Shown: positions 5,085 through 52,515 of the stretch, piece after piece
How the letters are laid out: every line of letters begins with the position of its first letter
Numbering within the stretch: position 1 is the first letter of the stretch
IMG/VR virus record: IMGVR_UViG_2724679237_000006
Coordinates: 1 to 52,515 of that record
Direction: 5' to 3' (one strand)
Source of the DNA: a virus
Taxonomy: Duplodnaviria > Heunggongvirae > Uroviricota > Caudoviricetes
DNA: 52,515 nt
The notes under the pieces: generated by a model
Database searches by the model: none
What the model saw: the letters and a program-made list of their open reading frames with translations, nothing else
What the model was told of the DNA's origin: nothing
Made by a program: the position numbers and the translations under genes

Positions 5085-7922
5085 GTGAGCGGGCGGCACT
5101 TCGCAGTGGGAATGCAGACGATGAAGACTCTTGACATTCGGGTCGCCTTCAGTGCTGTTGACAGGCTGACCCGGCCAGCCGAAAACGCCCGCCGCCTGAT
5201 GGGACAGCTTGGTGACTCCATCCAGCGAACGCAGGGGGCGATCAAAAATCTCGAGCGTCAGGCGCGTTCATTTGAGCGCGCCCGCGATGCTGTCAGTAAA
5301 GCGGATGCTGGCATCGTGAAAGCACGACGCCAGCTTAACGCCCTTCATCAGTTACAACGCACGGGTACGGTGCTCAGCGAAAAACAACAAAAGCTGATGC
5401 AGCAGTTAAGCACCCGGCTTGAACGCCTGAATGAATCGCGCACACGGGAAATTCAGAAAATGCGGGAGCTTGGCGGAGAGCTTAAACGCCACGGTATTTC
5501 CCTGACAGGCAGCGATAACACCATCCAGCAGGCCATCAGACGCACCGAACAGTACAACAACCAGCTTGAACTCGAACGACAGGCGCTTGCGCGTGTAACG
5601 CGGGCGCGTGAGCAGTATTCACGCGCGCAGGAAACAGCGGGAAAACTGAAAACGGGTGGTGCGCTGGCAACTGGTGCGGCAGCGGCTGGCGGCTATGCTG
5701 CCGGGCGTTTTTTGCAGCCCGCTATCGGATTCGGGAAAGAGATGTCCCGTGTGCAGGCGCTGACGCGAATTGACCAGAACAGCCCGCAGTTTAAGGCGCT
5801 GCGTGAGCAGGCGCTAAAGCTCGGCTCTGAAACGCAGTTTACTGCGAGTGATGCCGCCAGTGGGCAGGCATTTCTTGCTATGGCTGGCTTCACACCAGAA
5901 GCCATTCAGGCTGCGCTTCCCGGCGTGCTGAGCATGGCAACGGCTGGCGGTATGGACCTTGGCGAGACGGCGGATATTGGCTCAAATATCCTGACGCAGT
6001 TCGGCCTCTCTGCTGACCAGATGGATCGGGTCGGCGACACACTTACTGCGGCGTTTACCCGTACTAACACCGACCTTCGCGCGCTGGGCGAAACCATGAA
6101 ATATGCAGGTCCGGTGGCGGGTAAGCTGGGAATATCGCTGGAGCAGGCCGCAGCGATGGCGGGCGTGCTGGCGAATATGGGTATCAGAGGGAGTGATGCC
6201 GGGACGGCAATGCGTGCCAGCCTTGCTCGTCTGGCATCACCGCCAAAGGCGGCGGCAGAGGCGCTGAAAGAGCTTGGTGTGGCTGTCTCTGATGCGAACG
6301 GCAAAATGCGCCCGATGGAGGATGTGCTGGCCGACCTTTATAAAGCCACCCGCAAATACGGGGAAGTTGACCGGGTATCGTTCTTTAAGGACATAGCCGG
6401 AGAAGAGGCCTTCACGTCATTTATGGCCCTCGTTGATGCGGCAGGTGACGGTTCCTTACCTAAACTGAGAAAAGAACTTGAAGGCGCGCGCGGTGAGGCT
6501 GAACGCACAGCAAAGGTTATGGCCAACAACCTTGACGGCGATCTGAAATCACTCGACAGTGCATGGGAAGGGTTGCGCATCCGCATTGCAGATCTGATTG
6601 ACGGTCCGCTGCGTTCTGTCACGCAGTGGCTCACGCGGGTGGTATCAAGGGTGACGGCGCTGGCGCAGGCCCATCCGGTACTGACGCGCCAGCTACTGAT
6701 AGCAGGCGGTGCGTTGCTGGCAATGACTGCAACGGTTGGCTCGTTGTCGCTGGCTATTGGTGTGCTTGCTGGCCCGCTGGCAAAACTGCGTCTTGGCTTT
6801 TCCCTCCTGACCGGTTCAATGAATGCTGTCAGGGTCCTGCCAGCACTATGGGGAATGGTGACGGGTTCCGTCTCTTTACTGGGAGGTGCTATCGGGGCGT
6901 TGTTCAGCCCGGTCGGTCTTATCGTAGCTGCGCTTGCCGGAGCTGCCGTTCTCATCTGGAAATACTGGGACCCAATCAGGGCATTTTTTGCCGGGGTGTT
7001 CAGCGGGATTATGGAGCGGCTGGCCCCGTTACGCGAAACCTTTGAACGGTTTGGCCCTGTTTTCGAACTGGTTCGTGATGGCGTGATTCAGGTCTTTAAC
7101 TGGTTTACATCGCTGCTGTCACCGATGGAATCCAGCAAGGAAACGCTGGATAAATGCACCAGTGCTGGCGAGGTATTCGGCAACGTTCTTGGCGGTGCGT
7201 TACAGCTTGTCCTGACGCCTGCCAAAATGCTGCTGGATACGCTGGCATGGATACTTGAAAAACTTGGTGTCCTTCCAGATGAAGCGGAAAGGGCGAGAAA
7301 GAAAATCGAAGACGCGCAGCGTGCGGCCATTCTTCAGGACAAGGTTGCTTTGCTTCAGGGGGACCTGGCAAAAATCAATCCGCCGAAGTCTGCGGAAACA
7401 GGGACCGGAGGCGATAAGCCTAAAGACAATAAGCCGCTCACGGACAACAACACTGGCACGCTACGCAGGCTCAGCAAAATTGCAGATAATACGGGCAAGC
7501 TGGTTGATGAGACGAAAAAGCGTATCGGCCCCGGTGATATTGTCTTTAAGAACCTGCCCCGTGCGCTTGCTGTTCGTGGGGAGTGGCAGGAGCGAAAGGT
7601 TGCGCAGAGCAACAAGGCTCTTCCTGCAATCAATATCACTCCCGCGCCCCCGGCTCCGTTATCTCCGGCGCTGCCCCCTGTTGTTGCAGCAAGCTCCCGT
7701 CCGGTCGTGGAGGCCGCACGTGCGCCAGTTGCGCCCGTTTCCGCATCTTCCCGCAGCCGGGAGGCTGCGACCCCCGGATTTGGTGGTGAAATTCATGTCC
7801 ATCTGCATAACGTTGTTACGCAGAATCCCCGCGAACTGGCGAAACTGGTCGGCGAAATGGTCAGGGCAGAACTGGAGCGGCGTACCCGTGCCGGGCGTGG
7901 CAGTTTTTACGATAAAGATTGA
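5085..7922 (+). CDS. T: Tail tape measure protein T
   Basis: 945 aa; coiled-coil N-terminus, Ala/Gly-rich hydrophobic central segments; position between E/E' and U. Confidence 0.85.
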   Translation: MSGRHFAVGMQTMKTLDIRVAFSAVDRLTRPAENARRLMGQLGDSIQRTQGAIKNLERQARSFERARDAVSKADAGIVKARRQLNALHQLQRTGTVLSEKQQKLMQQLSTRLERLNESRTREIQKMRELGGELKRHGISLTGSDNTIQQAIRRTEQYNNQLELERQALARVTRAREQYSRAQETAGKLKTGGALATGAAAAGGYAAGRFLQPAIGFGKEMSRVQALTRIDQNSPQFKALREQALKLGSETQFTASDAASGQAFLAMAGFTPEAIQAALPGVLSMATAGGMDLGETADIGSNILTQFGLSADQMDRVGDTLTAAFTRTNTDLRALGETMKYAGPVAGKLGISLEQAAAMAGVLANMGIRGSDAGTAMRASLARLASPPKAAAEALKELGVAVSDANGKMRPMEDVLADLYKATRKYGEVDRVSFFKDIAGEEAFTSFMALVDAAGDGSLPKLRKELEGARGEAERTAKVMANNLDGDLKSLDSAWEGLRIRIADLIDGPLRSVTQWLTRVVSRVTALAQAHPVLTRQLLIAGGALLAMTATVGSLSLAIGVLAGPLAKLRLGFSLLTGSMNAVRVLPALWGMVTGSVSLLGGAIGALFSPVGLIVAALAGAAVLIWKYWDPIRAFFAGVFSGIMERLAPLRETFERFGPVFELVRDGVIQVFNWFTSLLSPMESSKETLDKCTSAGEVFGNVLGGALQLVLTPAKMLLDTLAWILEKLGVLPDEAERARKKIEDAQRAAILQDKVALLQGDLAKINPPKSAETGTGGDKPKDNKPLTDNNTGTLRRLSKIADNTGKLVDETKKRIGPGDIVFKNLPRALAVRGEWQERKVAQSNKALPAINITPAPPAPLSPALPPVVAASSRPVVEAARAPVAPVSASSRSREAATPGFGGEIHVHLHNVVTQNPRELAKLVGEMVRAELERRTRAGRGSFYDKD

Positions 7923-25096: not shown

Positions 25097-25408
25097 TTAT
25101 TCGGGAAATAACGCCCGGATATTTCCGGCTATCTGACTGGTTATCTGTGCGGTGGGCGCTGGCTGTAACATGTGGCGTTCTGCCCTGGTTTGTGTCACTG
25201 ATAACGCCTCATCATCAGCCCATGCAGACAGTCGGTAAGCCTCTGCCGGATTCATTTTCAGAAGTGCCAGCCCGGCCAGAAAAGCCACGCGTTGGCCGCT
25301 TTTGCGGGCTTCTGGTGTAAGGCTGTCCAGCCAGTCGCATGCTTTGCCTTCGTTCTTGACGGCGGCTGGCTTCAGATAGAAACTTATTCTTCTGGTTAAT
25401 GTCGCCAT
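25097..25408 (-). CDS. parR: ParR-like centromere-binding adaptor
   Basis: Aligns with plasmid R1 ParR as recalled: ISFYLKP...CDWLDS...ER......A.LAGLAL....P and C-terminal I.GNIRALFP. Confidence 0.8.
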   Translation of the reverse strand: MATLTRRISFYLKPAAVKNEGKACDWLDSLTPEARKSGQRVAFLAGLALLKMNPAEAYRLSAWADDEALSVTQTRAERHMLQPAPTAQITSQIAGNIRALFPE

Positions 25409-25414
25409 GGAGGG

Positions 25415-26374
25415 TTACTCCTTATCCATAGCGTACAGACCGTTAACCAGAGCAAACTGTGGCACCCCGTCTGTGATGAAATTCGCATTGACTCCATAGA
25501 CTTCATGGACTGCGGGTGCCACAATCTCCGCTCCTCCACCGACAACCAGCACCCGCCCGTAACCCGAAAAGCCCGCGAGTGCGCGGATCACGCGTTGTTT
25601 TAGTGTCTCCTCCTTTTCACGAATAACTGCCATCAGGCTGTTGTAATGCGCGTCATTGTGGATGTGCCGGCGCAGCCAGGCTTCATCGTGACGATGTTCA
25701 ATAACGGTACTGGCGACGTGGTGACTGGTACGCATGCCGTTGGCGGCCATCACCGACAACACGGCATCGGTCATCAGGGAAACGCCCACATGTGGATCGC
25801 AAAATACCTGGCTGATGCCTGCCAGTTGCCCCTGAACCTTTGCCACATCCAGCGTTGTTCCGCCTAAATCCACAATCAGCAGAGATTCAAACGGACTCAT
25901 GTCAGCCAGTGCCTTAAAGCCAGCCGGAATGGATTCAGGCATAACCCGCACGTTGCGGATAGTGAATGCTTCACCGTTCTGGTACTCCACAGGGCGCAGG
26001 ACATTCGCTTTTTTGCGGTTGATGTTGGCCATGTCCGGCTGTGCGTTTGTATCGAAATACTCGCTCAGTGGCAGAGTGACAACCACGTCCACTTCCTGTG
26101 GTGTGATACCTGATTTGACCAGCGCGTGATGAATGGCAATGACATTCACATCGCTGTACTGGTATTGCGTGTCGGTCGTCTGGACAAAGCGATCGCTGAC
26201 CGGATCAAAACCATAGCGCACGCCATCAAGCATGTAGTTCGCGGGCTGCGTGCCACCGAACGGCGCAGACCATTCCGACTTGAAGCTGTTCGGGCTGATG
26301 GCGTTGCGGCGTTCGCCGTTCTCAGTCCATGCCAGCTTGATGTTGGTGGAGCCGTCGTCGATGCAAATTTTCAT
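25415..26374 (-). CDS. parM: ParM actin-like segregation ATPase
   Basis: MKICIDDGSTNIKLAW...ISPNSF...YSDVNV.A.HHAL..SG......VD.V.T.PL.E......IDLGGTTLD...GGGAE match R1 ParM/StbA along the full length. Confidence 0.9.
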   Translation of the reverse strand: MKICIDDGSTNIKLAWTENGERRNAISPNSFKSEWSAPFGGTQPANYMLDGVRYGFDPVSDRFVQTTDTQYQYSDVNVIAIHHALVKSGITPQEVDVVVTLPLSEYFDTNAQPDMANINRKKANVLRPVEYQNGEAFTIRNVRVMPESIPAGFKALADMSPFESLLIVDLGGTTLDVAKVQGQLAGISQVFCDPHVGVSLMTDAVLSVMAANGMRTSHHVASTVIEHRHDEAWLRRHIHNDAHYNSLMAVIREKEETLKQRVIRALAGFSGYGRVLVVGGGAEIVAPAVHEVYGVNANFITDGVPQFALVNGLYAMDKE

Positions 26375-26402: not shown

Positions 26403-26516
26403 TCGTTTACGGGATTCTGAAATCCCGCTTTTGCCTGTTTTGTGCGCGTTTCATATATCGCGGCGTGTTTTTCGCTCATTTACGGGATTTGTGAATCCCG
26501 TTTCTGTCTGTTTTTT
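26403..26516. repeat. parC-like centromere: two ~40-bp direct repeats each with a 16-bp palindrome, upstream of parM
   Basis: tttacgggattctgaaatcccg...ctgtttt (26404-26442) and tttacgggatttgtgaatcccg...ctgtttt (26476-26516); inner palindromes gggattctgaaatccc and gggatttgtgaatccc. Confidence 0.55.
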
Positions 26517-29271
26517 GTTTTCGCTGGTCAGGCCACCGCAGCAGGTCTGCTTTGCGGCGGGCGCGTTCAGTGGTTTCACTGATTCTCTGTGCGTGCTCTG
26601 CGTCACGGATGGTGCGCAGCATGTCAGAAAGTACGGTAACGGGTGTTTTCATGGTGTTCTGGTCCTGCTGAATTGTGGATGCCAGGCGTGCGGCGGCTTC
26701 TGGGTCTGATGCCCCGAGCTGTTTCAGATAGCTGGAAACCGGGTTATGGCGGATTTCCGTGCTGTTTACGCCGTGATTACGGCTCAGGCGCTGCCAGAGT
26801 TGTGTGATTCGGCTGTCCGGTCGGGTATCCGGTTTACGTACAATTTCAAATCCCTGCGGTGCAATGATGCTGCCGTCAACGTACAGACTGCCGCCCCGTA
26901 ACAGGTGCTGCATCTGTTGTTCACCGATATGCAGGCCGAGAGATTCGGCAGACTCCCGCCATTCTTTAGCGAGTAACTCGTGGTTATCAGGCAAAGGCCG
27001 CGGCTGTTTGCGGCTCTGTGTCCAGTTCTGCATTTCATCACTGTTGTTTTTTGCCTGTTTGTCACGCAGCGAACGCATCAGCGCCCGGCTTTCGTGCCGT
27101 TTCAGTGAGCGCATCCATTCATCCACATCAACGCCGTCAGGAAGCTGCGGCCACGGTGCTGGCCGTTCTTCCGGCTGTTCTGTCCCGTTGTTGTCCGTTT
27201 CCTGTACACGGGGACAGTTATTGCCACGAGTCCAAGGGGCGGCAGGGCCGCCCTGAAGGTCAAAACCATTTTCGCGGGCGCTGTCTTCCGCTTCCGGTTT
27301 ACGTCTTACCAGCTTCCAGTTATCCGGGTGCGTGCACACGCGGGAAGACTCCCCGATTTGTGGCGACCAGATCCCGTAAATCTGTACGCTTTGCTCGCCG
27401 TAATCGTTCAGCTCTTCTGCGAGGTCGTAGGCGGTGCGAATCAGGTAATCCTTGCGTGGAACAAGTACGCCACCCTGTTTCTCAATGTAGGTGGCAAAAC
27501 ACCCGGCATCAGCGGCAGCGAGTACCGCATCCATTGCGTCATTTTCCAGACGTTGTGGACCTTCCGGGTTGCGGGCCATCTGACTGGCAAGGCGGCGGAG
27601 TTCACGCCATACTTGACGGGAGGGGATACCAAAGAACTGGAACTGGCGGACGCGGTGAAGGCGCGCCCAGCCGATGGCGCGTTCCACGCTCTCGGCCATT
27701 GATTTTCCGGTTTCGTGATCAACGCGTGGCTTGCCTGTTTTCGGGTCAATGCCATCCACGGCGCGGCTGTCCAGGTTCTTTCCGATGTAGGTGGCGATGT
27801 AGCTGGTCGGCGTACCTTTCGAACCGTCGACGTACTCTGCCTTAAAGCGCGGAGTTATGTCATTGCCCAGCTCGTGGCGGTCTTCGCGAATGGCAATATC
27901 ACGGGTGATGTCCACGATGCTGTCGATTTCTTCAGGATGTGCAAAGACCATCATGTGCCAGTGCACGGTGCCGTCATGGTGTGGCTCCACCGTGCGGATG
28001 CCATACCAGCGCAGGCCGTCGCGATTCAGTTTTTTGCGGACCGCCTTAAAAAAAGTGTTAACCAGGTAATCACTGGAATCGCGCATGGTGGCGCCGTTCC
28101 ATTTGGGATTCGGATGACCGTTCTCTGTTGTAGCGTGGTATTTTGACGGGCAGGTGACAGTCAGAAACACCGCTCTGTCGCCACGGGCTTCGGCCAGAAG
28201 TTCCAGTCCCTTCATGGTGGCCATCATTTCTGCCTTACGGTGGACCGGGTTACTTACTCCCGCGTAATACACTGTCTCGAGATCAATCGTGAACCCGTCT
28301 TCATTTTCCAGCATGAAACTTTTCAGGAAATCGCGTGTTTTCTCGCGCTGTGCGCGAAATTCACTTAATGCGTCCTGACTCAGATAGGGTGATGTTTTTC
28401 TGGAAACCAGACAGGCAGCGCGGAGTTGTTCCTCTCTCCATTCGCAACGTAAAAGCCACAGTTTGCGTTTCCACCAGTCCGCACAGGTCAGGCGGAGGAT
28501 TGCACCCGGCAGCAGTTCCGTGTCCGGTTCGTTCTTCCGGTCTTTGTCTGTTGTCAGTGCGTCATAATGCGGCGGCACTGTGTGCAGATGTAACGCCATG
28601 CGGGCCAGCATCTGATACGCCTTCAGCGTTATATCCATGGTCAGCTCGCCGTCGGTCGCGCCACAGCCATCGCAGAGTTTTTCGAAGGTGCTGCTGAACA
28701 TTGCCGCCGTCATGACGGCCAGCGTCTGTATCTGGTGCTTGTTGAGCTGTGGCAGGTACAGCAAATCGTCCAGACGTTCACGTCCGGCAAGGGAGCGATA
28801 ACCCGGAGTCAGCCAGCGACGGTCGGTGCGGGCCAGGCGTTCGAATATTTTGCGCAGGGTTCCGCTCGCATAGCGTTCCGCCTGCTGGTTCTTTTTGCCT
28901 TTCTGGTGGCCAGATTCCTGTTTTTTGCGCAGGAAAGAGAGATGGCGGATAAGCGGATCACGCAGATAGGACGGCAGCAGACGCAGCGAGGCCATGGCTT
29001 CATCCACCGCACCGCGTGCCTGCTTTCTGGCTTCTCTTGCCAGTGTGATGACTTTGTCCTGTTTTTCCTGTGCGTCCAGGCTTTTATTAATCAGATTGCC
29101 CAGTGGTGCAGCGGAGAACGCCGCATCAGCCATTTCCTGGCGGCGCTCGTTCTCTGCCCGGTAGGCATCCAGCCAGGAAGAAAGAAGGGAGGGGCGGACA
29201 GGCTCCCCCGTTCCCTCGCGACCGACTGCATGGCGTGGTTGTTGCCAGTCTCTGATGTACTCCGTTGCCAC
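26476..29271 (-). CDS. A: Replication initiation endonuclease, gpA-like (HUH rolling-circle initiator)
   Basis: 931 aa; HHDGTVHWHMMVF (HUH motif) and SYIATYIGKNLD (catalytic Tyr region) as in P2 gpA. Confidence 0.8.
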   Translation of the reverse strand: MATEYIRDWQQPRHAVGREGTGEPVRPSLLSSWLDAYRAENERRQEMADAAFSAAPLGNLINKSLDAQEKQDKVITLAREARKQARGAVDEAMASLRLLPSYLRDPLIRHLSFLRKKQESGHQKGKKNQQAERYASGTLRKIFERLARTDRRWLTPGYRSLAGRERLDDLLYLPQLNKHQIQTLAVMTAAMFSSTFEKLCDGCGATDGELTMDITLKAYQMLARMALHLHTVPPHYDALTTDKDRKNEPDTELLPGAILRLTCADWWKRKLWLLRCEWREEQLRAACLVSRKTSPYLSQDALSEFRAQREKTRDFLKSFMLENEDGFTIDLETVYYAGVSNPVHRKAEMMATMKGLELLAEARGDRAVFLTVTCPSKYHATTENGHPNPKWNGATMRDSSDYLVNTFFKAVRKKLNRDGLRWYGIRTVEPHHDGTVHWHMMVFAHPEEIDSIVDITRDIAIREDRHELGNDITPRFKAEYVDGSKGTPTSYIATYIGKNLDSRAVDGIDPKTGKPRVDHETGKSMAESVERAIGWARLHRVRQFQFFGIPSRQVWRELRRLASQMARNPEGPQRLENDAMDAVLAAADAGCFATYIEKQGGVLVPRKDYLIRTAYDLAEELNDYGEQSVQIYGIWSPQIGESSRVCTHPDNWKLVRRKPEAEDSARENGFDLQGGPAAPWTRGNNCPRVQETDNNGTEQPEERPAPWPQLPDGVDVDEWMRSLKRHESRALMRSLRDKQAKNNSDEMQNWTQSRKQPRPLPDNHELLAKEWRESAESLGLHIGEQQMQHLLRGGSLYVDGSIIAPQGFEIVRKPDTRPDSRITQLWQRLSRNHGVNSTEIRHNPVSSYLKQLGASDPEAAARLASTIQQDQNTMKTPVTVLSDMLRTIRDAEHAQRISETTERARRKADLLRWPDQRKQKTDRNGIHKSRK

Positions 29272-33295: not shown

Positions 33296-34297
33296 ATGTC
33301 GGTTCGTAAGATTCCATCAGGTAAATGGCTTTGCGAATGTTATCCTTACGGGGCATCGGGAAAACGTATTCGTAAACAGTTTGCGACAAAAAGTGAGGCG
33401 CTCTCTTATGAGCGCCGTTTAATGAATAGTAGAGTTGGAGACGAGTTTCAAGATGGTTCTGGTCCTCGTCTTTCTGAGTTGGTTGCTCGTTGGTTTGAGA
33501 TGTACGGTAAAACCTTGTCCTCTGGTGCAGAGCGCAAAGTCAAACTTGAGTCTATTTGTTCCAGGCTGGGAGATCCATTTGCTTCTCAGTTTGACAAAAA
33601 TATGTTTGCTACTTATCGGGAAAGGAGGTTATCAGGAGAATGGAATCCCAAGGGGAAGAAAAAACTTAGTGAAGCAACCGTTAATCGCGAGCAGTCATAT
33701 CTACATGCTGTTTTTGCCGAACTGAAGCGCCTTGGGGAGTGGTCTGGTGAAAACCCCCTGACTGGCATTCGCAAGTTTCGTGAGGAAGAAAAGGAATTGG
33801 CGTTTCTGTATGTAGATGAGATTGAACGCCTTCTGATTGCGTGTGATGAGTCACGGAATAAAGATTTGGGGGTTGTTGTCCGTATTGGGCTTGCGACTGG
33901 TGCTCGGTGGAGTGAAGCTGAAGGATTAAAGCAATCTCAAGTGCTGCCCGGTCGAATCACATTTGTTAAAACTAAAGGAAAGAAGAACCGCACTGTACCG
34001 ATTTCACCTCAATTGCAGGCTATGCTTCCTAAAAAACGAGGAGCGTTATTTTCACCATGTTATGAGGCTTTTGACGCTGCAATTAAGAGAGCGAAGATCG
34101 AGCTTCCTGATGGGCAATTAACTCATGTGCTACGTCACACGTTTGCCAGTCATTTTATGATGCGGGGAGGAAATATTCTTGTGTTGCAAAAAATACTGGG
34201 GCATAGCGATATAAAAATGACTATGCGTTATGCGCATTTTGCTCCAGGTCATTTAGAGGCTGCAGTTGAATTGAACCCTTTTGACAATAGAGGGTAA
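33296..34297 (+). CDS. int: Tyrosine integrase, P2 Int-like
   Basis: 333 aa; GKRIRK.F..KSEA, GARWSEA, RITFVKTK..K.RTVPIS, LRHTFASHFMM.GG.I..LQ.ILGH....MTMRYAHFAP match P2 Int as recalled, including catalytic R..H..R..Y. Confidence 0.9.
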   Translation: MSVRKIPSGKWLCECYPYGASGKRIRKQFATKSEALSYERRLMNSRVGDEFQDGSGPRLSELVARWFEMYGKTLSSGAERKVKLESICSRLGDPFASQFDKNMFATYRERRLSGEWNPKGKKKLSEATVNREQSYLHAVFAELKRLGEWSGENPLTGIRKFREEEKELAFLYVDEIERLLIACDESRNKDLGVVVRIGLATGARWSEAEGLKQSQVLPGRITFVKTKGKKNRTVPISPQLQAMLPKKRGALFSPCYEAFDAAIKRAKIELPDGQLTHVLRHTFASHFMMRGGNILVLQKILGHSDIKMTMRYAHFAPGHLEAAVELNPFDNRG

Positions 34298-34588: not shown

Positions 34589-35605
34589 TCATTTTCTCTG
34601 GCCACCAACTACGGGCACTACTTTAACTTTCCGGTCATATGCTGCTGTCTGTCGCGGGTTCTTATGCCCGGAAATTGCTTGCTTCTCTTCCAGGCTGCCT
34701 TCCAGATCAGAGATACCTTTTGCTTTCAGATCATGAAATGTGAAGTCTATTTGCAGATGAGGATATTTTTCCTGTGCTGCCGCTTTGACATCACGCCAAC
34801 GAGAGTTAAAACCATCACGGGTATACTTGCCACCGGTAGTTTGATGAATCACAAACAGGCTACTGATTCCCGTTTTTAATGGCAGAGAACGAGCCAGAGC
34901 TATCGCTTTCTGCAGACGAGGCGACCAGGCTTTGATTTGCTTAACGCCGGTTTTTCCCTGACGAATGTAGATCCCGGAATCGAACAGCTGGTCTTTCTGC
35001 AATGAAAGTACATCACTCTGTCTGGCCACGCATAAGTAGGCAATCTCCATTGCTACGCGAACAACATCAGGAGACACTTCATAAACGGCCTGATATTCTT
35101 CATCCGTAATATAACGTTCGCGAGCTTTCTCTTTAAACTGTTTAACTCCCTGACAAGGATTCCTCTGAACATAACCTCGTTCATAACCCCAACGGAATAC
35201 CCGGGACATAAAGCTTTTTTCCCTGTTTGCCTGAGTTCGGCTTGATAAACCGCGTTGATCCATATAGCGCCGAATATGTTCAGGTTTGATTTTATCCGGG
35301 TCGATCTTCCCGAAGACAGGCAGAACTTTTCCGGAATATTTTGTGTAGTCTTTCCGGGTTTCGACTGCCAAATCCATAAAATCAGGGGAGGTCATGAATT
35401 GTTCCGTGAGCGCCTGAAAAGTATTTCTTTCTTTTTCGTCACCGACCGCTTTTTCATATGCCAGCCATACGGCTGATCGTGGTGCATCCAATGCGCACAG
35501 GCGTATCGCTTTGTTATCTTTATTCCTGAATTCGTAGGCCGCTTTGCCCTGGTAAACACGAGGCGGCATCCAGTTATCTGCTGGGTTCTTTCTCTTTCCG
35601 GCCAT
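34589..35605 (-). CDS. int: Tyrosine integrase (lambda Int family) of a second element
   Basis: ORF 34589-35635; N-terminal arm-binding-like MAGKRKNP..NWMPPRVY and C-terminal catalytic region (HDLKAKGISD...GH....TAAYDR). Confidence 0.85.
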   Translation of the reverse strand: MAGKRKNPADNWMPPRVYQGKAAYEFRNKDNKAIRLCALDAPRSAVWLAYEKAVGDEKERNTFQALTEQFMTSPDFMDLAVETRKDYTKYSGKVLPVFGKIDPDKIKPEHIRRYMDQRGLSSRTQANREKSFMSRVFRWGYERGYVQRNPCQGVKQFKEKARERYITDEEYQAVYEVSPDVVRVAMEIAYLCVARQSDVLSLQKDQLFDSGIYIRQGKTGVKQIKAWSPRLQKAIALARSLPLKTGISSLFVIHQTTGGKYTRDGFNSRWRDVKAAAQEKYPHLQIDFTFHDLKAKGISDLEGSLEEKQAISGHKNPRQTAAYDRKVKVVPVVGGQRK

Positions 35606-35837
35606 TAAATATTGCTCCAAAATCAGGTTCATCATCTTTTCGCGTCGTCACCTCCTGTAAATTGCGAAATTTTATTGGGTTCATGAAATGGCCCCAGGTT
35701 GTTTTTGGGTGTCCGTCAGCCCTTTCCATGAAGAAAATTCCAGCCCGGCGAAGAGCCTCACATTGCTTTGATTTAAGTGGGCTTCCCGTCAGCTCGACCA
35801 TTTCTTCTCTGGTGATTATGTCGTGATCGCTTTTCAT
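35574..35837 (-). CDS. Excisionase-like / small DNA-binding protein
   Basis: 87-aa ORF immediately upstream of and overlapping int; ITREEMVELTGSPLKSKQCEALRRAG is HTH-like. Confidence 0.4.
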   Translation of the reverse strand: MKSDHDIITREEMVELTGSPLKSKQCEALRRAGIFFMERADGHPKTTWGHFMNPIKFRNLQEVTTRKDDEPDFGAIFNGRKEKEPSR

Positions 35838-46292: not shown

Positions 46293-46516
46293 ATTGACTT
46301 AGAAAAAGTCCGGGGCTATAGTTTCCGCGCAGCCGCAAAATCGGTTGCCGGGATTGGCGTCCCGGATATCTAAGTGACGCATAGCCGCGTTAGCGGTTTT
46401 TTTATGTGTTAGGCACGGCCACATTCGCATTATGGTGGGCTGTGTGGGGGCTTCTGTGGAAGCGCCGGGTTCACTTAGCCGGTTACGCCAACCCTGCACA
46501 GCTCACCACCAGATGA

Positions 46517-47353
46517 TTGGCGTCGCTGGTGGTGATGAAAAAAACACTAAGTGAGGCCACTGCGATGACAGTCCAAATATCTGCGGAATCCCTTTCTCCG
46601 CTACATCATAACCAACTTCCCGTCATCACTACTGAATTGCTTGCCAGTTTGTATGGCACGGAAGTAAATGGTATCCAGCAAAACTTCAAGCGCAACATCG
46701 CCAGATTTGTCGTAGGAAAGCATTTTTTTAAGCTGGAAGGTAATGAATTACGCGACTTCAAAAACAGACTGACAGATAGTCAGTCAGTTGCTAAACATAC
46801 CCGATCCCTCATTCTCTGGACAGAACGCGGCGCAGCTCGCCATGCCAAAATGCTGGAAACAGAACAGGCCTGGGAAGTTTTCGAAAAGCTGGAAGATTGT
46901 TATTTTAGCCAGCGTCCAGAGAGGCGGAGTACAACTACCGATGACCGTACTCCCTTGCGTGATGCCGTTAATATACTGGTCGGCAAGAAAGGCATGATGT
47001 ATCCCGATGCCTACACCATGATTCATCAACGCTTCGCCGTCTCTCACATAGAACAACTGTCACAGACGCAAATGTTAGAGGCGATTGAATACATCCACTG
47101 CCTGCTACTCGATGAAAATCACCCAACCATTCCAGATTTTTCTTTTATCACCACTATCAAAAATGGAAAAGTGACCGGGATGCGCCATGTTGCCAAAGGC
47201 GAACATCTGATGACCTTTGACGCTTTCAAAGAGATCGCTGAGCGGGCAGGGTATCTGGTGATCCACAGCGACAATCTGCGAAGTATGACACTGGATAAAT
47301 TGATGGTAATGGGGAAAAAGTCGGCTATATCCGTTGCTAATTCAGCATTTTGA
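46517..47353 (+). CDS. Phage antirepressor (Bro-N/ORF6N-like N-terminus, KilA-C-like C-terminus)
   Basis: 278 aa; HNQLPVITTELLASLYG...FKRN..RFVVGKHFF resembles antirepressor N-domains; start codon uncertain. Confidence 0.6.
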   Translation: MASLVVMKKTLSEATAMTVQISAESLSPLHHNQLPVITTELLASLYGTEVNGIQQNFKRNIARFVVGKHFFKLEGNELRDFKNRLTDSQSVAKHTRSLILWTERGAARHAKMLETEQAWEVFEKLEDCYFSQRPERRSTTTDDRTPLRDAVNILVGKKGMMYPDAYTMIHQRFAVSHIEQLSQTQMLEAIEYIHCLLLDENHPTIPDFSFITTIKNGKVTGMRHVAKGEHLMTFDAFKEIAERAGYLVIHSDNLRSMTLDKLMVMGKKSAISVANSAF

Positions 47354-47720
47354 CAGGTTGTTTGGGGCGGAAATACTCTATTTGCGCTTAGGATACTTGT
47401 TAGCTACTTCCACTTTTGTCACAAAGCGGACTATCTGGCTGAGCTGAGGGTCCGCAGTGAGTGAGGATCGAACATTTAAGCGTCGGTACTGATGACGGAT
47501 TTGAGGTATTTAAAATATTACAGGAGCTAGTGTGGATGTGACAGACATAAAAGTGGATGCAGTCAGAAAAGACATATGTATAGCAGGCTTCTTCGAGGAC
47601 TAGATCAATCAATAAGATTTAGATAAAATTGCAGTGTTAAATAAAAAGACTAGTAGTATTTAAACTTTAAGTGCGTTAGTAAGGTCGTGCAATTATATAA
47701 AACTAACGTTTTCTGAATGT

Positions 47721-48428
47721 TTGGAGAGTAAAATGTTAGAACCGCCAAAGAATTATAATGAAATGTTACCCATGCTCCATAAGGCAACTTTTATTACTAC
47801 ATTTATATTTTACCTATCATTGGTTATTTATGGCTACATACCATTGGTTGGCATTAATGCCAAGTACATTCCACCAATCAAAGACTACGAAGAATTTATT
47901 AAGTGGATATTAACATTCGGCATATTACCAATTGCATTCTCAATTTTTTGGTCTGTGATTAGTGGGGCTTTAGATCTACATAATAACGTGGCAAAAATTC
48001 TTGGAATAAGAAAAGCATGGGATAATTACTTAATTGTTAAACCATTGGCGCAAGTTGCAGGCATTACAAGAAAATTAACTAGTGATGAATCCTCCAAAGT
48101 AATGAACAAACTGTATTACCCAGAAGTTAATGAGTTAAAAGATAAACATTATGTTGAGCTCTTCTGGAATAAGGTTTATTACTTTTGGGTTTTCTTTGAA
48201 CATACTGTGATTGCATTTATTACTGTTTTAGTAATAAGTTTTGCTAAAATAACCCATTTACTCTCTGTAACCGGTTCTTTAAAAAATCTTTGGTTGTGGG
48301 TTATTTTTATTGTTGTCTTTAATTTTCTTATTTTTATTGCATCCGTTAAACCCAGAACTGAAGGCCAAGTCAGACAAATACCTGATGATAAGATAAAGGA
48401 ATTTTTTAATAATAACAGTATTTTTTAA
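47721..48428 (+). CDS. Polytopic membrane protein (4 predicted TM helices), unknown function
   Basis: 235 aa, AT-rich; hydrophobic segments FITTFIFYLSLVIYGYIPLVGI, ILTFGILPIAFSIFWSVISGAL, YYFWVFFEHTVIAFITVLVISFA, LWLWVIFIVVFNFLIFIASV. Confidence 0.55.
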   Translation: MESKMLEPPKNYNEMLPMLHKATFITTFIFYLSLVIYGYIPLVGINAKYIPPIKDYEEFIKWILTFGILPIAFSIFWSVISGALDLHNNVAKILGIRKAWDNYLIVKPLAQVAGITRKLTSDESSKVMNKLYYPEVNELKDKHYVELFWNKVYYFWVFFEHTVIAFITVLVISFAKITHLLSVTGSLKNLWLWVIFIVVFNFLIFIASVKPRTEGQVRQIPDDKIKEFFNNNSIF

Positions 48429-49094
48429 ATGAGGTTAGTTTTGAATTACAAAATAAATGGAATGACTATACGTTCAGAAAATGCAGCAAAACCGCATACT
48501 ATGCCATCTAACTATCTCTGTAACCATATTGAAAATTCTGTTAAAAATGGCATAGCCCTTGATTTCGGATGTGGAAAGCTTAGATATTCAGAACAATTAG
48601 TAAATAAATTTGAAGCTGTGACGTTTTTAGATTCCAGAAAACAGTTAGAAAGAGTGCAAATTATCAGAGGCGTACAAACCACAATTCCAGAGTATGTGGC
48701 TAATAATTATAAAAATGCTAATGTTGTCCCTTTTGAAAGTATAGATAAAATAAAAGATAATTATGATTTCATACTTTGCGCAAACGTGCTTTCCGCAATT
48801 CCATGCAAATCAACAATTTACAAAATCATCAATGAGATTGGGAGATTATTAAAAAATGATGGTGAAGCAATTATTGTTAATCAATACAAAAGCTCTTATT
48901 TCAAAAAGTATGAGACTGGAATAAAACATTTGCATGGATATATATACCAAAACTCTCGCAATGCTTTCTATTATGGCTTATTGGATGAGAATATTGTAAG
49001 TAAAATTTGCTTGGATAACAATTTAGCAGTAATAAAGTCATGGAGCAAAGCTGGCAGTTCATATGTGGTTGTTGGTAAAAATAAACATAATTAG
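48429..49094 (+). CDS. Class I SAM-dependent methyltransferase-like protein
   Basis: 221 aa; motif I-like IALDFGCGKL, acidic residue after beta-2 (VTFLDS), motif IV-like DFILCANVL. ATG directly abuts the upstream stop (TAAATG). Confidence 0.5.
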   Translation: MRLVLNYKINGMTIRSENAAKPHTMPSNYLCNHIENSVKNGIALDFGCGKLRYSEQLVNKFEAVTFLDSRKQLERVQIIRGVQTTIPEYVANNYKNANVVPFESIDKIKDNYDFILCANVLSAIPCKSTIYKIINEIGRLLKNDGEAIIVNQYKSSYFKKYETGIKHLHGYIYQNSRNAFYYGLLDENIVSKICLDNNLAVIKSWSKAGSSYVVVGKNKHN

Positions 49095-49421
49095 TAAATT
49101 TAAAAATAATATTAGAGGGTGCCATTTTCTTATTACTTATTAACTCGCTGGGGTAGGGGCAACACGCCCCACCTCATCAAGTTACTGCAGGATTATAGAC
49201 TTTTGTCAAAACGTTGGAAAAATTCAGTACAAACTTTTCCATGTTTTTCCTAATCATAGATAATGATGCTCACTTATGTTAACAACTTCTTGTACATAAC
49301 GGTCTTCTTCAACAGGACAGCTATAAGTGAAGAAATAAAGTCGATAAACAATAAAGAGGCTCCAAATAAATATTATTCAATGAAGCCTGCTGTTTATTAT
49401 TTGTTATTATTAAATCGCTAC

Positions 49422-50321
49422 TTATAATTCAACAATTTTTAGTATTATATCAATATTATTTAGCCTTGCAATCTCTGATGAATCGTTTGCAATTTTATCT
49501 TTTAAATTATCAATGTTAATCATATCTTCAGAGCTAATACAAACCATATCACCTTGGTTAACTTTTGATTTGTTCACTATGGCTTGAATAACAGACAGAT
49601 CGTCCATTACACCTCTCAGGAATTTAACCATGCTTTGATCCTTGAAATCAGATATCGATTTTGAACGTTGCTTACGTTGGATTGTTCCTTTTGTAATTAT
49701 TTCGTTAATTTCTTTTAAACCGGCAAGCATATCAGATATGCTTCCTTCGCAACTCATCCTGTGTTTAATAGCATTGCGATTAATAACATTGAGTATTATT
49801 TCGAGTGAATCTCTATCATCCCATGGCAATAATAATGTATAATCCTGATGGCGATGAATGGCATCAAGCATATCAAGGATCATATTTTCATCTGCTTTAT
49901 CGCAAAGTTCATTTACAAAATAGCTGGGGTCGATTACTTTACAATAACTTGGAACTGAGCATTTTGAGCTTTTACAAAACCCAAAAATATATAAAAAAGG
50001 GTATATGTCTTTTAGACTCTTTCCTGATTTATTTTCTTTTTCAAAGGCTGCGATTGTTTTTTTAATTTTTGCCGGGGTTGCTTTCGTTGTAACTTGAACT
50101 GCTATCATGTTTTTATTGTCAGCTAAATCAATGGCGGGAAAGTTAACTTTAATCTGATTCATGTTTTCCAGTTCCCCCATTTTCAGTGCGCGAAACATAT
50201 AAATGGTCAATGACTCAATCATTCTTTCCATGTCATGAAAGCCAGTCTGTTTGCGTTGTTCGATATAAAGCTGAAGTAGCGCAATATCTTTCTGTAAGTT
50301 ACTAATAAGTGGGGCAATCAT
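49422..50321 (-). CDS. SMEK-domain-like protein (N-terminal domain), unknown function
   Basis: 299 aa; N-terminal region ...LENMNQIKVNFPAIDLADNKNMIAVQVTTKATPAKIKKT resembles the SMEK domain signature as recalled. Confidence 0.45.
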   Translation of the reverse strand: MIAPLISNLQKDIALLQLYIEQRKQTGFHDMERMIESLTIYMFRALKMGELENMNQIKVNFPAIDLADNKNMIAVQVTTKATPAKIKKTIAAFEKENKSGKSLKDIYPFLYIFGFCKSSKCSVPSYCKVIDPSYFVNELCDKADENMILDMLDAIHRHQDYTLLLPWDDRDSLEIILNVINRNAIKHRMSCEGSISDMLAGLKEINEIITKGTIQRKQRSKSISDFKDQSMVKFLRGVMDDLSVIQAIVNKSKVNQGDMVCISSEDMINIDNLKDKIANDSSEIARLNNIDIILKIVEL

Positions 50322-50854
50322 AGCTAATAATCCTTTTCAATTAAGTAGGGGATGTGTTTGAGCTTCTTTATTTGACTGTTAGTTTAATTTCTTGTTTTCA
50401 TATTAACAAGCTCTACAATTTTATCAAGATTTCTCAAAAACTAATCCTCCGTGTAAATCCACTAACTATGCTGAATTTATTCCGCTGTGAAACATGTCCG
50501 CTCATGGCTGTGAGTTCAACGGGTCGATGCAACGCCATCCACTCAGTAAAATTGTGTAATTCCAGTGAGCAGGCGAATCTTCAGTATGCTCTAGTTTCTT
50601 ACTCACACCTGCTTATGCTTTAACTAGGTACAATGTAGATAAACTCTCATGTTGATTTATCGCCATGATCACATTTCCGGAAGAAAAATTTTGTTTGTAA
50701 CCTTGCTAGATGAGACAGTATAGATATCATTACATATGAAACAGTACATTAGGGAACACTGAAGGCCGTAACTTTAAAAAATATAATTAATTGTACATAA
50801 TTTTATAACCATCAAGATGGTGGCAATTATATAAGTAATAATAAGGGTTGATTA

Positions 50855-52207
50855 ATGATTAAATTCACAGAAAAGGAAATACAAAATTACATATGGGAAA
50901 ATAGGAACAATTTTCCCGAACTGCTTATTGAACCTGCAGGTCTTGAAGTACTTGAATTCAACGAAGATCTCTCTGATGTAACAGCACAACTGCTAATAAA
51001 AAACAGAATAAATAGTAAACTATCCAATCTTCACTCTAAGCTTTATGGACTGGAATTTATCGGCTGCGAAGTTCCTTTAGAACAAAATTCAAACTCAACA
51101 ATTAGAGCCGATTTTTTGGCTATATTCTGTGATGATACTGGGCTTGCTGTCATAGAGCTTAAAAAAAGTGAACAGACTGAAAGGCAAGCATTCACTGAAT
51201 TGTTAGCATATTCAAACCATATGACAACATTATTTCCATCCATGACGAAAAATGACAGTGTGTATATTTTAATATCACCAATGGAAACCAGAATAGCACG
51301 TGATGCTGTCATCCAAAGTTTAATATTTGACAATAGGGATATCATTGCTTTAATTCCAACATTCTCTGATCCTCTTGATATTACCTCTCTTAAACTTGAA
51401 TTATGGATTCCAGACCAAACAGAGTTAGCGACTTTCTCAAATATTGCATTTAGAGAAGATAATTTTAGTGTCTGTAAATTATCCTGGGAGTATGATGCAG
51501 AGCGATGGGATGCAGCTAGAGGAGAAGAACTTTTACATTCATTTGTTAGTCAATTTGATAACATTTCCTGCCTTGCAGCTCAGTATATGGAAGAATCTGG
51601 AGTTCATGGTTTTACTTATTGCTCTCAGTTATGGCCTGAATTATCTCAGGCATTACCTTTTACGAATTCATTAGTACTAGTTGGCATGAATCCTTATGCT
51701 GTCGGGAGTGTCCAGCATTTATCCACAGAATGCGATAACTATGATGATATACCAGACCCAAATGCTTACACTCCTCACATATCTGAATTAATTGGTAAAC
51801 TAGGTGAAGGAGAATTATATGAGGATAATATTGATGTCCTAAGTGGTTTACATCGTGTATGGAGCTCTCAGTTATATCGTATAGGTAAGCAGGTAATTGA
51901 ACTCACCACTAGAAATACAGATGGGAAATACGTCCACGTTGAATATGGCTTTATGAATTGGGAAATCTATCAAAGGTCACTACTTGAGGATGTTTTCTGT
52001 GAAAACTTCGCTATTAGGTCTACAGGTTTAATACGACATCTCTATACTGACATTCTTAAATTAGATTATGATTTTTGTAAAAATAACGGATTAGAAAATC
52101 ACCCTATTCATGGAGACATGCCATACTTAGGTGTCAATTTTCTTAAATCCCAACAGCACTTTAGAAAATTTATTTTGCGAATGTTCTATGCCGAAATAGA
52201 TGCGTAG
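50855..52207 (+). CDS. PD-(D/E)xK nuclease-like protein, unknown function
   Basis: 450 aa; N-terminal region has a D...E.K arrangement (IRADFLAIF...GLAVIELKKSEQTE) typical of the PD-(D/E)xK fold. Confidence 0.45.
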   Translation: MIKFTEKEIQNYIWENRNNFPELLIEPAGLEVLEFNEDLSDVTAQLLIKNRINSKLSNLHSKLYGLEFIGCEVPLEQNSNSTIRADFLAIFCDDTGLAVIELKKSEQTERQAFTELLAYSNHMTTLFPSMTKNDSVYILISPMETRIARDAVIQSLIFDNRDIIALIPTFSDPLDITSLKLELWIPDQTELATFSNIAFREDNFSVCKLSWEYDAERWDAARGEELLHSFVSQFDNISCLAAQYMEESGVHGFTYCSQLWPELSQALPFTNSLVLVGMNPYAVGSVQHLSTECDNYDDIPDPNAYTPHISELIGKLGEGELYEDNIDVLSGLHRVWSSQLYRIGKQVIELTTRNTDGKYVHVEYGFMNWEIYQRSLLEDVFCENFAIRSTGLIRHLYTDILKLDYDFCKNNGLENHPIHGDMPYLGVNFLKSQQHFRKFILRMFYAEIDA

Positions 52208-52515
52208 TGAGATTTTTTGATTTATCTCTGCTGGAGAAAATTCATGGGTGAGGGAAGAGATAGATAATATTGAAAATAAAACTTTCAAAAGATGTTGAAA
52301 TAAAAAGCATGATCTAAATTATTTTGGCATTCATTTCATGTGAAACAGCTCTTCTAAAAATCTATACAGGCATAGGTGGAATTTTCTCATGATTTTTTAG
52401 TTGTAATTTATCTTTACTGAATAATATATGGGGAGGATTGTCGCCGTAAGCGGCTCGTCAGAACCGTATTGATATTTACTGAGAGCTCAGATCAACTTTC
52501 CAGGGCAACAGATCG

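Follow-up and report, generated by a model that had tools for sequence, protein, structure and literature searches.

Several two-gene defence systems combine a cytosolic enzyme or sensor with a small partner that crosses the membrane several times; lambda RexA/RexB, type I CBASS, Pycsar systems with transmembrane (TM) effectors and Kiwa are of this kind. In Escherichia coli K-12, the genes ymfE and ymfD occupy the att end of the e14 prophage, with icd on one side and the divergent abortive-infection gene lit on the other. A study by genomic SELEX (systematic evolution of ligands by exponential enrichment) lists them as the 'ymfED' operon and places a constitutive RpoD promoter for it between ymfE and lit (PMC3946193). 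Unlike other e14 genes, ymfE and ymfD are not SOS-induced (PMC11002266), and YmfD was treated as an uncharacterised putative methyltransferase in 2025 (PMC12096079). The window analysed here is a stretch of 52,515 nucleotides, positions 1 to 52,515 of the IMG/VR virus record IMGVR_UViG_2724679237_000006 (Caudoviricetes). It carries a gene for an inner-membrane protein followed directly by a gene for a class I methyltransferase dependent on S-adenosylmethionine (SAM). An earlier sequence-only reading had seen these two genes as an operon of a kind that it did not recognise; by sequence comparison the pair is virtually certain to be a diverged allele of the ymfE-ymfD operon of e14. The preferred reading of its function is that the two proteins form a membrane-anchored methyltransferase complex in phage defence or exclusion, at a probability of about 0.45, a figure that belongs to the least certain step, the defence function.

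In BLASTP comparisons, the membrane protein is 60% identical to K-12 YmfE over 230 of 231 residues (E 2e-105), and the methyltransferase is 67% identical to K-12 YmfD over 216 residues (E 3e-110). One source also names a homologue of the methyltransferase ymfD (P0055). A sensitive DNA search found the pair in 434 of 5,426 complete E. coli genomes – five at 99% identity or above, 146 at 80–90%, and 283 at 60–80%. The group of 283 includes K-12 MG1655 and is annotated 'ymfE: protein YmfE' and 'ymfD: class I SAM-dependent methyltransferase'. The window pair has 68% nucleotide identity to the loci annotated in this way and forms a separate allele group. The two versions share full-length homology, gene order, low guanine-plus-cytosine (GC) content, a location within a prophage and a junction without any spacer: in K-12, ymfE ends at position 6696 and ymfD starts at position 6697 of locus L008, so that the stop codon abuts the ATG, with the same order and strand as in the window. 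Both also have a defence gene alongside, Lit in e14 and a SMEK-domain gene here. They differ in the companion itself, which is convergent in the window and divergent in e14, and in location, as the window pair occupies a nin-type cargo slot of a different lambdoid prophage while the e14 pair is at the att end next to int.

In the window, the TAA of the ymfE-like gene and the ATG of the ymfD-like gene are contiguous, as the earlier reading had described. The abutting junction is more than chance, because that of K-12 is also 0 nucleotides and because the two genes are tightly spaced or overlapping at about 30 other loci (a gap of 2–15 nucleotides or an overlap of 11–20). No Shine-Dalgarno sequence is found before the ATG at 48429, which fits coupling by re-initiation. 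Both proteins are made from one tightly coupled transcript. The start proposed earlier for the first gene, TTG at 47721, has to be moved: it is merely the first possible start codon, and the true start is almost certainly the ATG at 47733. This ATG is preceded by GGAG at 47723–47726, all homologues begin there (MLEPPKNY...), and it is the RefSeq start of the 696-nucleotide gene in the 99%-identical copy of E. coli EC28.

The pair does not depend on its position in one prophage. A 2.9-kb block (47574–50502), consisting of the pair and the convergent SMEK gene, is found again, 83.6% identical, in another lambdoid prophage, where its orientation is inverted relative to the phage backbone. The cassette is therefore autonomous, with its own expression signals, and a promoter belonging to the pair itself is probably located in the non-coding leader that accompanies the cassette. 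A promoter scan was uninformative, with 19 promoter-like sites against 17.4 expected from shuffled sequence. No terminator was found in a scan of the locus, Rfam gave no RNA within the cassette, and the repeats inside the island look like chance.

Homologues of the two genes co-occur almost without exception, which upholds the operon as it was first proposed. When the membrane protein was used for look-ups, all seven clusters had a gene for a methyltransferase of 212–218 residues immediately downstream, with a gap of 11–15 nucleotides or an overlap of 11–20; four of these are distant-clade members at 19–25% identity. When the methyltransferase was used, both look-ups gave a ymfE-like gene 8 nucleotides upstream, its product 36% identical in Halomonas. 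A locus scan, with a pattern made from the methyltransferase alignment and one genome per species, gave 19 loci: 17 with both genes (of 18 informative genome loci), one with a truncated methyltransferase remnant (L027), and one contig-end fragment. The hosts include Pseudomonas, Marinomonas, Microbulbifer, Amphritea, Colwellia, Saccharophagus, Enterobacter and Bradyrhizobium, as well as a planctomycete and a Cellvibrionales metagenome-assembled genome. In the last two (L024, L026) the order is swapped, methyltransferase then membrane gene, and the genes are still contiguous. Both genes are present in all 24 IMG/VR loci and are covered in 433 of the 434 matching E. coli genomes, and adjacency persists down to 15–27% identity. 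The pair is found on only 4 of 72,556 plasmids.

The two proteins also change together. Their pairwise identities are correlated (r = 0.84 for 24 non-identical pairs), a value reached by none of 2000 Mantel permutations, with the membrane protein diverging faster than the methyltransferase. Across Gamma- and Alphaproteobacteria, Planctomycetota and other phyla, the two families have been passed on and have diverged together, and the membrane protein and the methyltransferase very probably constitute an obligate functional pair. A few copies are decayed. Two Bradyrhizobium assemblies (L028 3861–5276, L029 3534–4949) have a frameshift in the membrane gene, and in a metagenomic contig (L032 5719–6442) a methyltransferase gene split by a frameshift lies beside an intact membrane gene; unless these are sequencing errors, the loss of either partner is not obviously lethal. 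An apparent fusion of the membrane protein and the methyltransferase in the Bradyrhizobium assemblies was rejected, the long open reading frame (ORF) there being a read-through artefact of the frameshifted gene in a GC-rich genome.

The methyltransferase assignment, which had been made from motifs, was followed up by profile and structure searches and is sound: the protein has a genuine class I fold. Its Pfam matches are weak and agree on class I, with Methyltransf_11 and TehB above the cut-offs and Methyltransf_12 and Methyltransf_23 just below. There are further weak profile matches to TehB, UbiG and BioC; the NCBIfam-level TehB score is 29.5 bits against a cut-off of 218. An AlphaFold model built from 25 homologues (mean predicted local distance difference test score, pLDDT, 89.7) has the canonical Rossmann-type strand order, with an N-terminal hairpin and additional strands between strands 5 and 6. 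The structural hallmarks of class I are there – a Rossmann-like seven-stranded fold, a GxGxG-type motif I, and an acidic residue, D68, at the end of strand 2. Foldseek matched the model to 995 methyltransferases in the PDB at E <= 0.001, none of them close (TM-score about 0.6).

The motifs are no accident of sequence. DFGCG is invariant in the 25 homologues, which are 39–83% identical to the window protein, and so are the SAM-contacting positions D45, G47, G49, D68, E103 and N119. Beyond these, the family has invariant motifs of its own: NAAKP near the N-terminus, GKLRY, CxNVLSAIPC, NQxxSSYFKK and YYG. Invariance of both the SAM positions and the family motifs points to a functional enzyme whose substrate is specific and conserved, and the ymfD-like protein is accordingly predicted, with good confidence, to be catalytically active. 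The family is basic (median isoelectric point, pI, 9.1), a weak hint at an anionic substrate or a membrane surface.

The membrane protein was correctly read as a four-TM protein. Hydropathy shows four hydrophobic segments, centred near residues 28, 68, 160 and 195, and these match helices 8–32, 53–80, 138–173 and 183–214 of the AlphaFold model (pLDDT 84.8; like the methyltransferase, modelled as a monomer). The positive-inside rule puts three parts in the cytoplasm: the N-terminus, the C-terminal tail and, between TM2 and TM3, a helical insert of about 65 residues (80–146, ten of them Lys or Arg). An exhaustive profile search gave a family of 236 clusters at 50% identity, nearly all of 220–250 residues and matching end to end. 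Among the residues still conserved at 19–25% identity are PKNY-EML, an N-terminal motif, LH(D/N)..S...GIR..FD where the cytoplasmic insert begins, FY.Y and D.H, and W.WFW..E where TM3 begins; the cytoplasmic tail is conserved as well. The positions of these motifs place the conserved polar residues in the cytoplasm or at the membrane interface, which is a poor fit to a periplasmic sensor. The periplasmic loops are short and variable, the first of them being the least conserved and least confident region of the protein, so that the membrane sensor suggested by the sequence-only reading finds no support. The fold is uncatalogued. The protein has no match in Pfam, NCBIfam, PHROGs or the PADLOC models; none of ten distant family members has a Pfam family; a sequence-profile search of the PDB with the family gave nothing at E <= 10; and no related structure was found in the PDB or among viral predicted structures.

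How such a pair might act can be set out in three steps. The one held with most confidence is that the two proteins would form a complex of about 1:1 at the inner face of the membrane, in which the YmfE-like protein would dock and regulate the YmfD-like enzyme or be regulated by it. Second in confidence, methyl transfer to a non-DNA target would be essential to function; candidate targets are a small molecule, a lipid, RNA or a protein, possibly YmfE itself. The third and least confident step is that the pair would serve as an anti-phage defence or exclusion module, with the four-TM protein as the likely effector or regulated element. One concrete possibility is that carboxyl methylation controls the membrane protein in the manner of CheR; alternatively, a membrane lipid or an incoming phage component could be methylated.

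The evidence for a defence function comes from the neighbourhood. Complete known defence systems directly abut the pair in four independent loci: Hachiman HamA/HamB upstream in Pseudomonas sp. PICF141 and downstream in Amphritea (L017, L021), Olokun OloA/OloB in Microbulbifer (L020), and Lamassu LmuA/LmuB in P. simiae (L023). A type I-C retron reverse transcriptase-Toprim gene lies 3 kb from the pair on a relaxase-bearing island (L005). In Halomonas (L010) the pair adjoins a PD-DExK DUF6602 protein gene and a DUF3584 operon, on an integrase-bearing element (L038) it adjoins Dcm, Vsr and HATPase genes, and in Saccharophagus (L025) there is a mad3-like gene nearby. Integrases, resolvases and S24 peptidases recur among the 150 neighbouring ORFs. 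The slot in which the window pair lies has nuclease (HNH, GIY-YIG) or ImmA/IrrE cargo in related prophages, and the autonomy of the cassette agrees with a defence role as well. With Lit beside the e14 pair, and with SMEK and a weakly restriction-endonuclease-like gene of 450 residues beside that of the window, this co-localisation is suggestive, the counts being raw ones without a background rate and association not being proof.

The sequence-only reading had pointed out that a membrane protein paired with an enzyme is a recurring architecture of defence systems. That idea is plausible and is better founded than before, though it stays somewhat short of even odds. Several observations weigh against it. 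About half of the distinct loci have no recognisable defence neighbour (L009, L015, L016, L018, L022, L024, L026), and the pair has no copy in 50,697 sequenced phage genomes. Against the PADLOC-DB 2.0.0 models, neither protein matches anything beyond the generic mad2, which is hit by the methyltransferase (E 1.6e-4) over residues 30–157, the SAM-binding core. In structure, the enzyme comes closest to methyltransferases that mostly act on small molecules, and this is just as compatible with a metabolic or envelope role. A K-12 ymfD knockout grows normally (PMC12096079), and the only reported phenotype of a ymfD deletion is reduced early biofilm formation (PMC3105296). A search of the literature and the DefensePredictor supplements by gene names and RefSeq accessions found no experiment tying ymfD or ymfE to phage resistance.

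Among known defence systems, the pair would work like RexAB or the CBASS and Pycsar TM pairs by its architecture, and it is a member of none of them. Shared with these, and with Kiwa, is a make-up of one soluble protein and one small four-TM protein, co-transcribed from prophages or defence islands and often constitutively active in lysogens. The window pair differs in that no similarity of sequence or fold to the PADLOC models or to solved structures was detected, that its soluble partner is a SAM-methyltransferase, an enzyme that none of them is known to use, and that the ymfED partners co-diverge rather than being modularly swapped. MADS, the methylation-associated defence system, offers a second comparison through the mad2 match and the mad3-like gene of L025, but the match is confined to the generic SAM-binding core of a profile 492 residues long, the window has none of the other mad genes, and no mad component corresponds to the membrane protein. 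Outside defence, CheR with its chemoreceptors, UbiG, PmtA and TehB are likewise soluble class I methyltransferases that depend on a membrane partner or surface. To UbiG and TehB there is the weak profile similarity described above; the window protein scores far below the cut-offs of these families, and the YmfD family has its own invariant motifs. It may tentatively be suggested that ymfED-type pairs are an unrecognised, widespread two-gene anti-phage system of a non-DNA methyltransferase and a dedicated four-TM partner. The enzyme would then either tag a target, of phage or host, at the membrane or regulate a membrane effector through methylation, and one copy would have gone unremarked beside lit in K-12.

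The alternative that survives best is a lysogenic-conversion or envelope module. The membrane protein would recruit the methyltransferase to a membrane-embedded small molecule or lipid – a quinone, a phospholipid head group or a lipid-linked intermediate – and an altered surface or biofilm would benefit the lysogen. The structural neighbours agree with it, dominated as they are by the small-molecule methyltransferases NNMT, DhpI, NodS and DnrK, and so do the weak TehB, UbiG and BioC matches and the UbiG-like labels given to metagenome homologues, though all of these profile matches are generic, as the NCBIfam TehB score illustrates. The e14 pair is at the att-proximal end, the usual place of conversion genes, and its promoter is constitutive (PMC3946193). 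Besides the effect of the deletion on early biofilm, there is induction of ymfD in mature biofilm (PMC3105296). The pair has no conserved biosynthetic neighbour, however, and a metabolic moron would not be expected to lie repeatedly right next to Hachiman, Olokun and Lamassu on non-prophage islands; on this evidence an envelope module is less likely than a defence module.

A toxin-antitoxin or addiction module, in which a membrane-damaging toxin is neutralised by the methyltransferase (for example by methylating it) and the mobile element is stabilised, would explain the strict two-gene coupling with overlapping genes and the occurrence on prophages, integrase or relaxase islands and a few plasmids; toxin-antitoxin modules also accumulate in defence islands. 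It is improbable in view of what happens when a partner is lost. The Keio ymfD deletion with intact ymfE grows normally (PMC12096079), although ymfE, at 31% GC, may be silenced. Spontaneous loss of the whole of e14 is tolerated, and the split methyltransferase beside an intact membrane gene in L032 should be lethal if the membrane gene is expressed and the enzyme were an essential antitoxin. In Bradyrhizobium, it is the membrane genes that are frameshifted, not the methyltransferases.

Least probable is an orphan or restriction-linked nucleic-acid methyltransferase acting on DNA or on host or phage RNA, with the membrane protein a mere accessory: the basic pI, the many invariant Lys, Arg and Tyr residues flanking the SAM pocket, the tRNA methyltransferase Trm9 as best Foldseek match and the weak mad2 match could be read in its favour, but a regular-expression search found no (D/N/S)PP(Y/F) and no PCQ...ENV motif (ENV does not occur, and the sole PC, at residue 125, is in a helix-capping position), the model is a single 221-residue domain without a target-recognition domain, no cognate nuclease is conserved (the membrane protein being the only conserved neighbour, and no nuclease partner being conserved outside enterobacteria), and no YmfD-dependent motif is known from K-12 methylomes. 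The K-12 ymfD knockout does have fewer peaks in N6-methyladenosine (m6A) sequencing, but all four unrelated knockouts of that study lost most of theirs, that of ymfD no more specifically than the other three, and it identified no specific m6A writer (PMC12096079).

If the preferred reading, a membrane-anchored methyltransferase complex in defence or exclusion, is true, non-DNA methylation would join the chemistry of bacterial immunity, and two long-standing y-genes of K-12, beside the classical abortive-infection gene lit, would gain a function. Even without a defence role, the analysis defines a family of obligately paired membrane proteins and methyltransferases whose membrane side is not covered by Pfam, NCBIfam, PHROG or PADLOC. 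It also marks the antirepressor-Q slot of this prophage lineage as a cargo hotspot.

Table 1. Features of the window, in window coordinates.
Feature	Position	Strand	Evidence or remark
Partition/stability gene of P2-like element	25097–25408		beside replication endonuclease gene
ParM-like gene of P2-like element	25415–26374		beside replication endonuclease gene
Replication endonuclease gene of P2-like element	26476–29271
Terminal integrase of P2-like element	33296–34297
Integrase, first gene of lambdoid prophage	34589–35635	-
a1/b1 target of C4 RNA	46316–46368	+	Rfam, above gathering score
isrK Hfq-binding RNA	46329–46403	+	Rfam, above gathering score
C4 antisense RNA	46428–46513	+	Rfam, above gathering score
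ORF6N antirepressor-like gene	46517–47353		directly after the three RNA elements (46316–46513)
Non-coding leader travelling with cassette	47574–47732	+	starts at edge of 83.6% shared block; includes GGAG 47723–47726
ymfE-like gene, 231-residue inner-membrane protein, four TM helices	47733–48428	+	60% identity to K-12 YmfE
TAAATG junction, ymfE-like TAA abutting ymfD-like ATG	48426–48431	+	read in sequence; also 0 nucleotides in K-12
ymfD-like gene, 221-residue class I SAM-dependent methyltransferase	48429–49094	+	67% identity to K-12 YmfD; Pfam; AlphaFold; Foldseek
Motif I DFGCG, residues 45–49 of methyltransferase	48561–48575	+	invariant in 25 homologues
SMEK-domain protein gene, 299 residues, convergent to pair	49422–50321	-	Pfam SMEK_N 2.8e-23; NCBIfam 1.1e-31; PADLOC Aga_REase-PNTD 5.9e-20
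ORF of 450 residues	50855–52207	+	weak HSDR_N (0.0026) and PADLOC REase_II (0.0022); phrog_30092 at 4e-11

The SMEK protein has a SMEK_N nuclease-type domain at residues 9–120, followed by about 180 residues without a family match. In published work, SMEK is a nuclease domain that occurs in fusion with short-Argonaute partners (PMC10810196), and the window protein is a stand-alone form of this domain. The gene accompanies the pair in 19 of the 24 IMG/VR loci, which are enterobacterial prophages, and is found in none of the non-enterobacterial loci examined and not in K-12 e14. It was considered as a third core component and rejected on this distribution; it is a neighbour, a frequent travelling companion of the pair in enterobacterial prophages. 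The ORF of 450 residues further downstream is present only with the 99%-identical copies of the island, and may be a separate single-gene candidate for nuclease-type defence.

The window contains two tandem prophages, a P2-like element that ends with an integrase and then a lambdoid prophage that opens with another, as seen in positions 1–35635. The pair is low-GC cargo in the variable antirepressor-Q slot of the lambdoid prophage. Near position 47300 the GC content drops from about 0.5 to 0.31, and it is low through to the window end. On its 5' side, the island is bordered by the C4/isrK antisense RNA and the ORF6N antirepressor-like gene; the RNA elements and this gene are a P1/P7 ImmI-type c4-ant immunity module inside a lambdoid prophage. 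On the 3' side, the final 70 nucleotides (52445–52515) match upwards of 3,000 E. coli records, and also several lambdoid phages, at 98–100% identity, and since these matches to the common lambdoid backbone begin at 52445, the island ends at about that position. In the EC28 copy, which is 99% identical, DUF1367, DUF1364 and Q are downstream.

The cargo slot thus runs from the ORF6N gene to DUF1367/DUF1364/Q (about 47354–52445; compare L041 9455–15900 and L042 9461–17000), and its contents vary. In ST131-type prophages, with a flank that is 99.9% identical, the same slot holds an LprI-family gene and an ImmA/IrrE pair, and in the E24377A prophage it holds HNH and GIY-YIG nuclease genes. Because closely related prophages carry different cargo, the antirepressor-Q slot is a variable cargo hotspot. 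The island of the window is carried by only 5 of the 5,426 complete E. coli genomes. Within the ORF6N gene, the 33 nucleotides at 46690–46722 are identical (33/33) to annotated spacers of clustered regularly interspaced short palindromic repeats (CRISPR) in two E. coli genomes, and this prophage lineage is therefore a CRISPR target.

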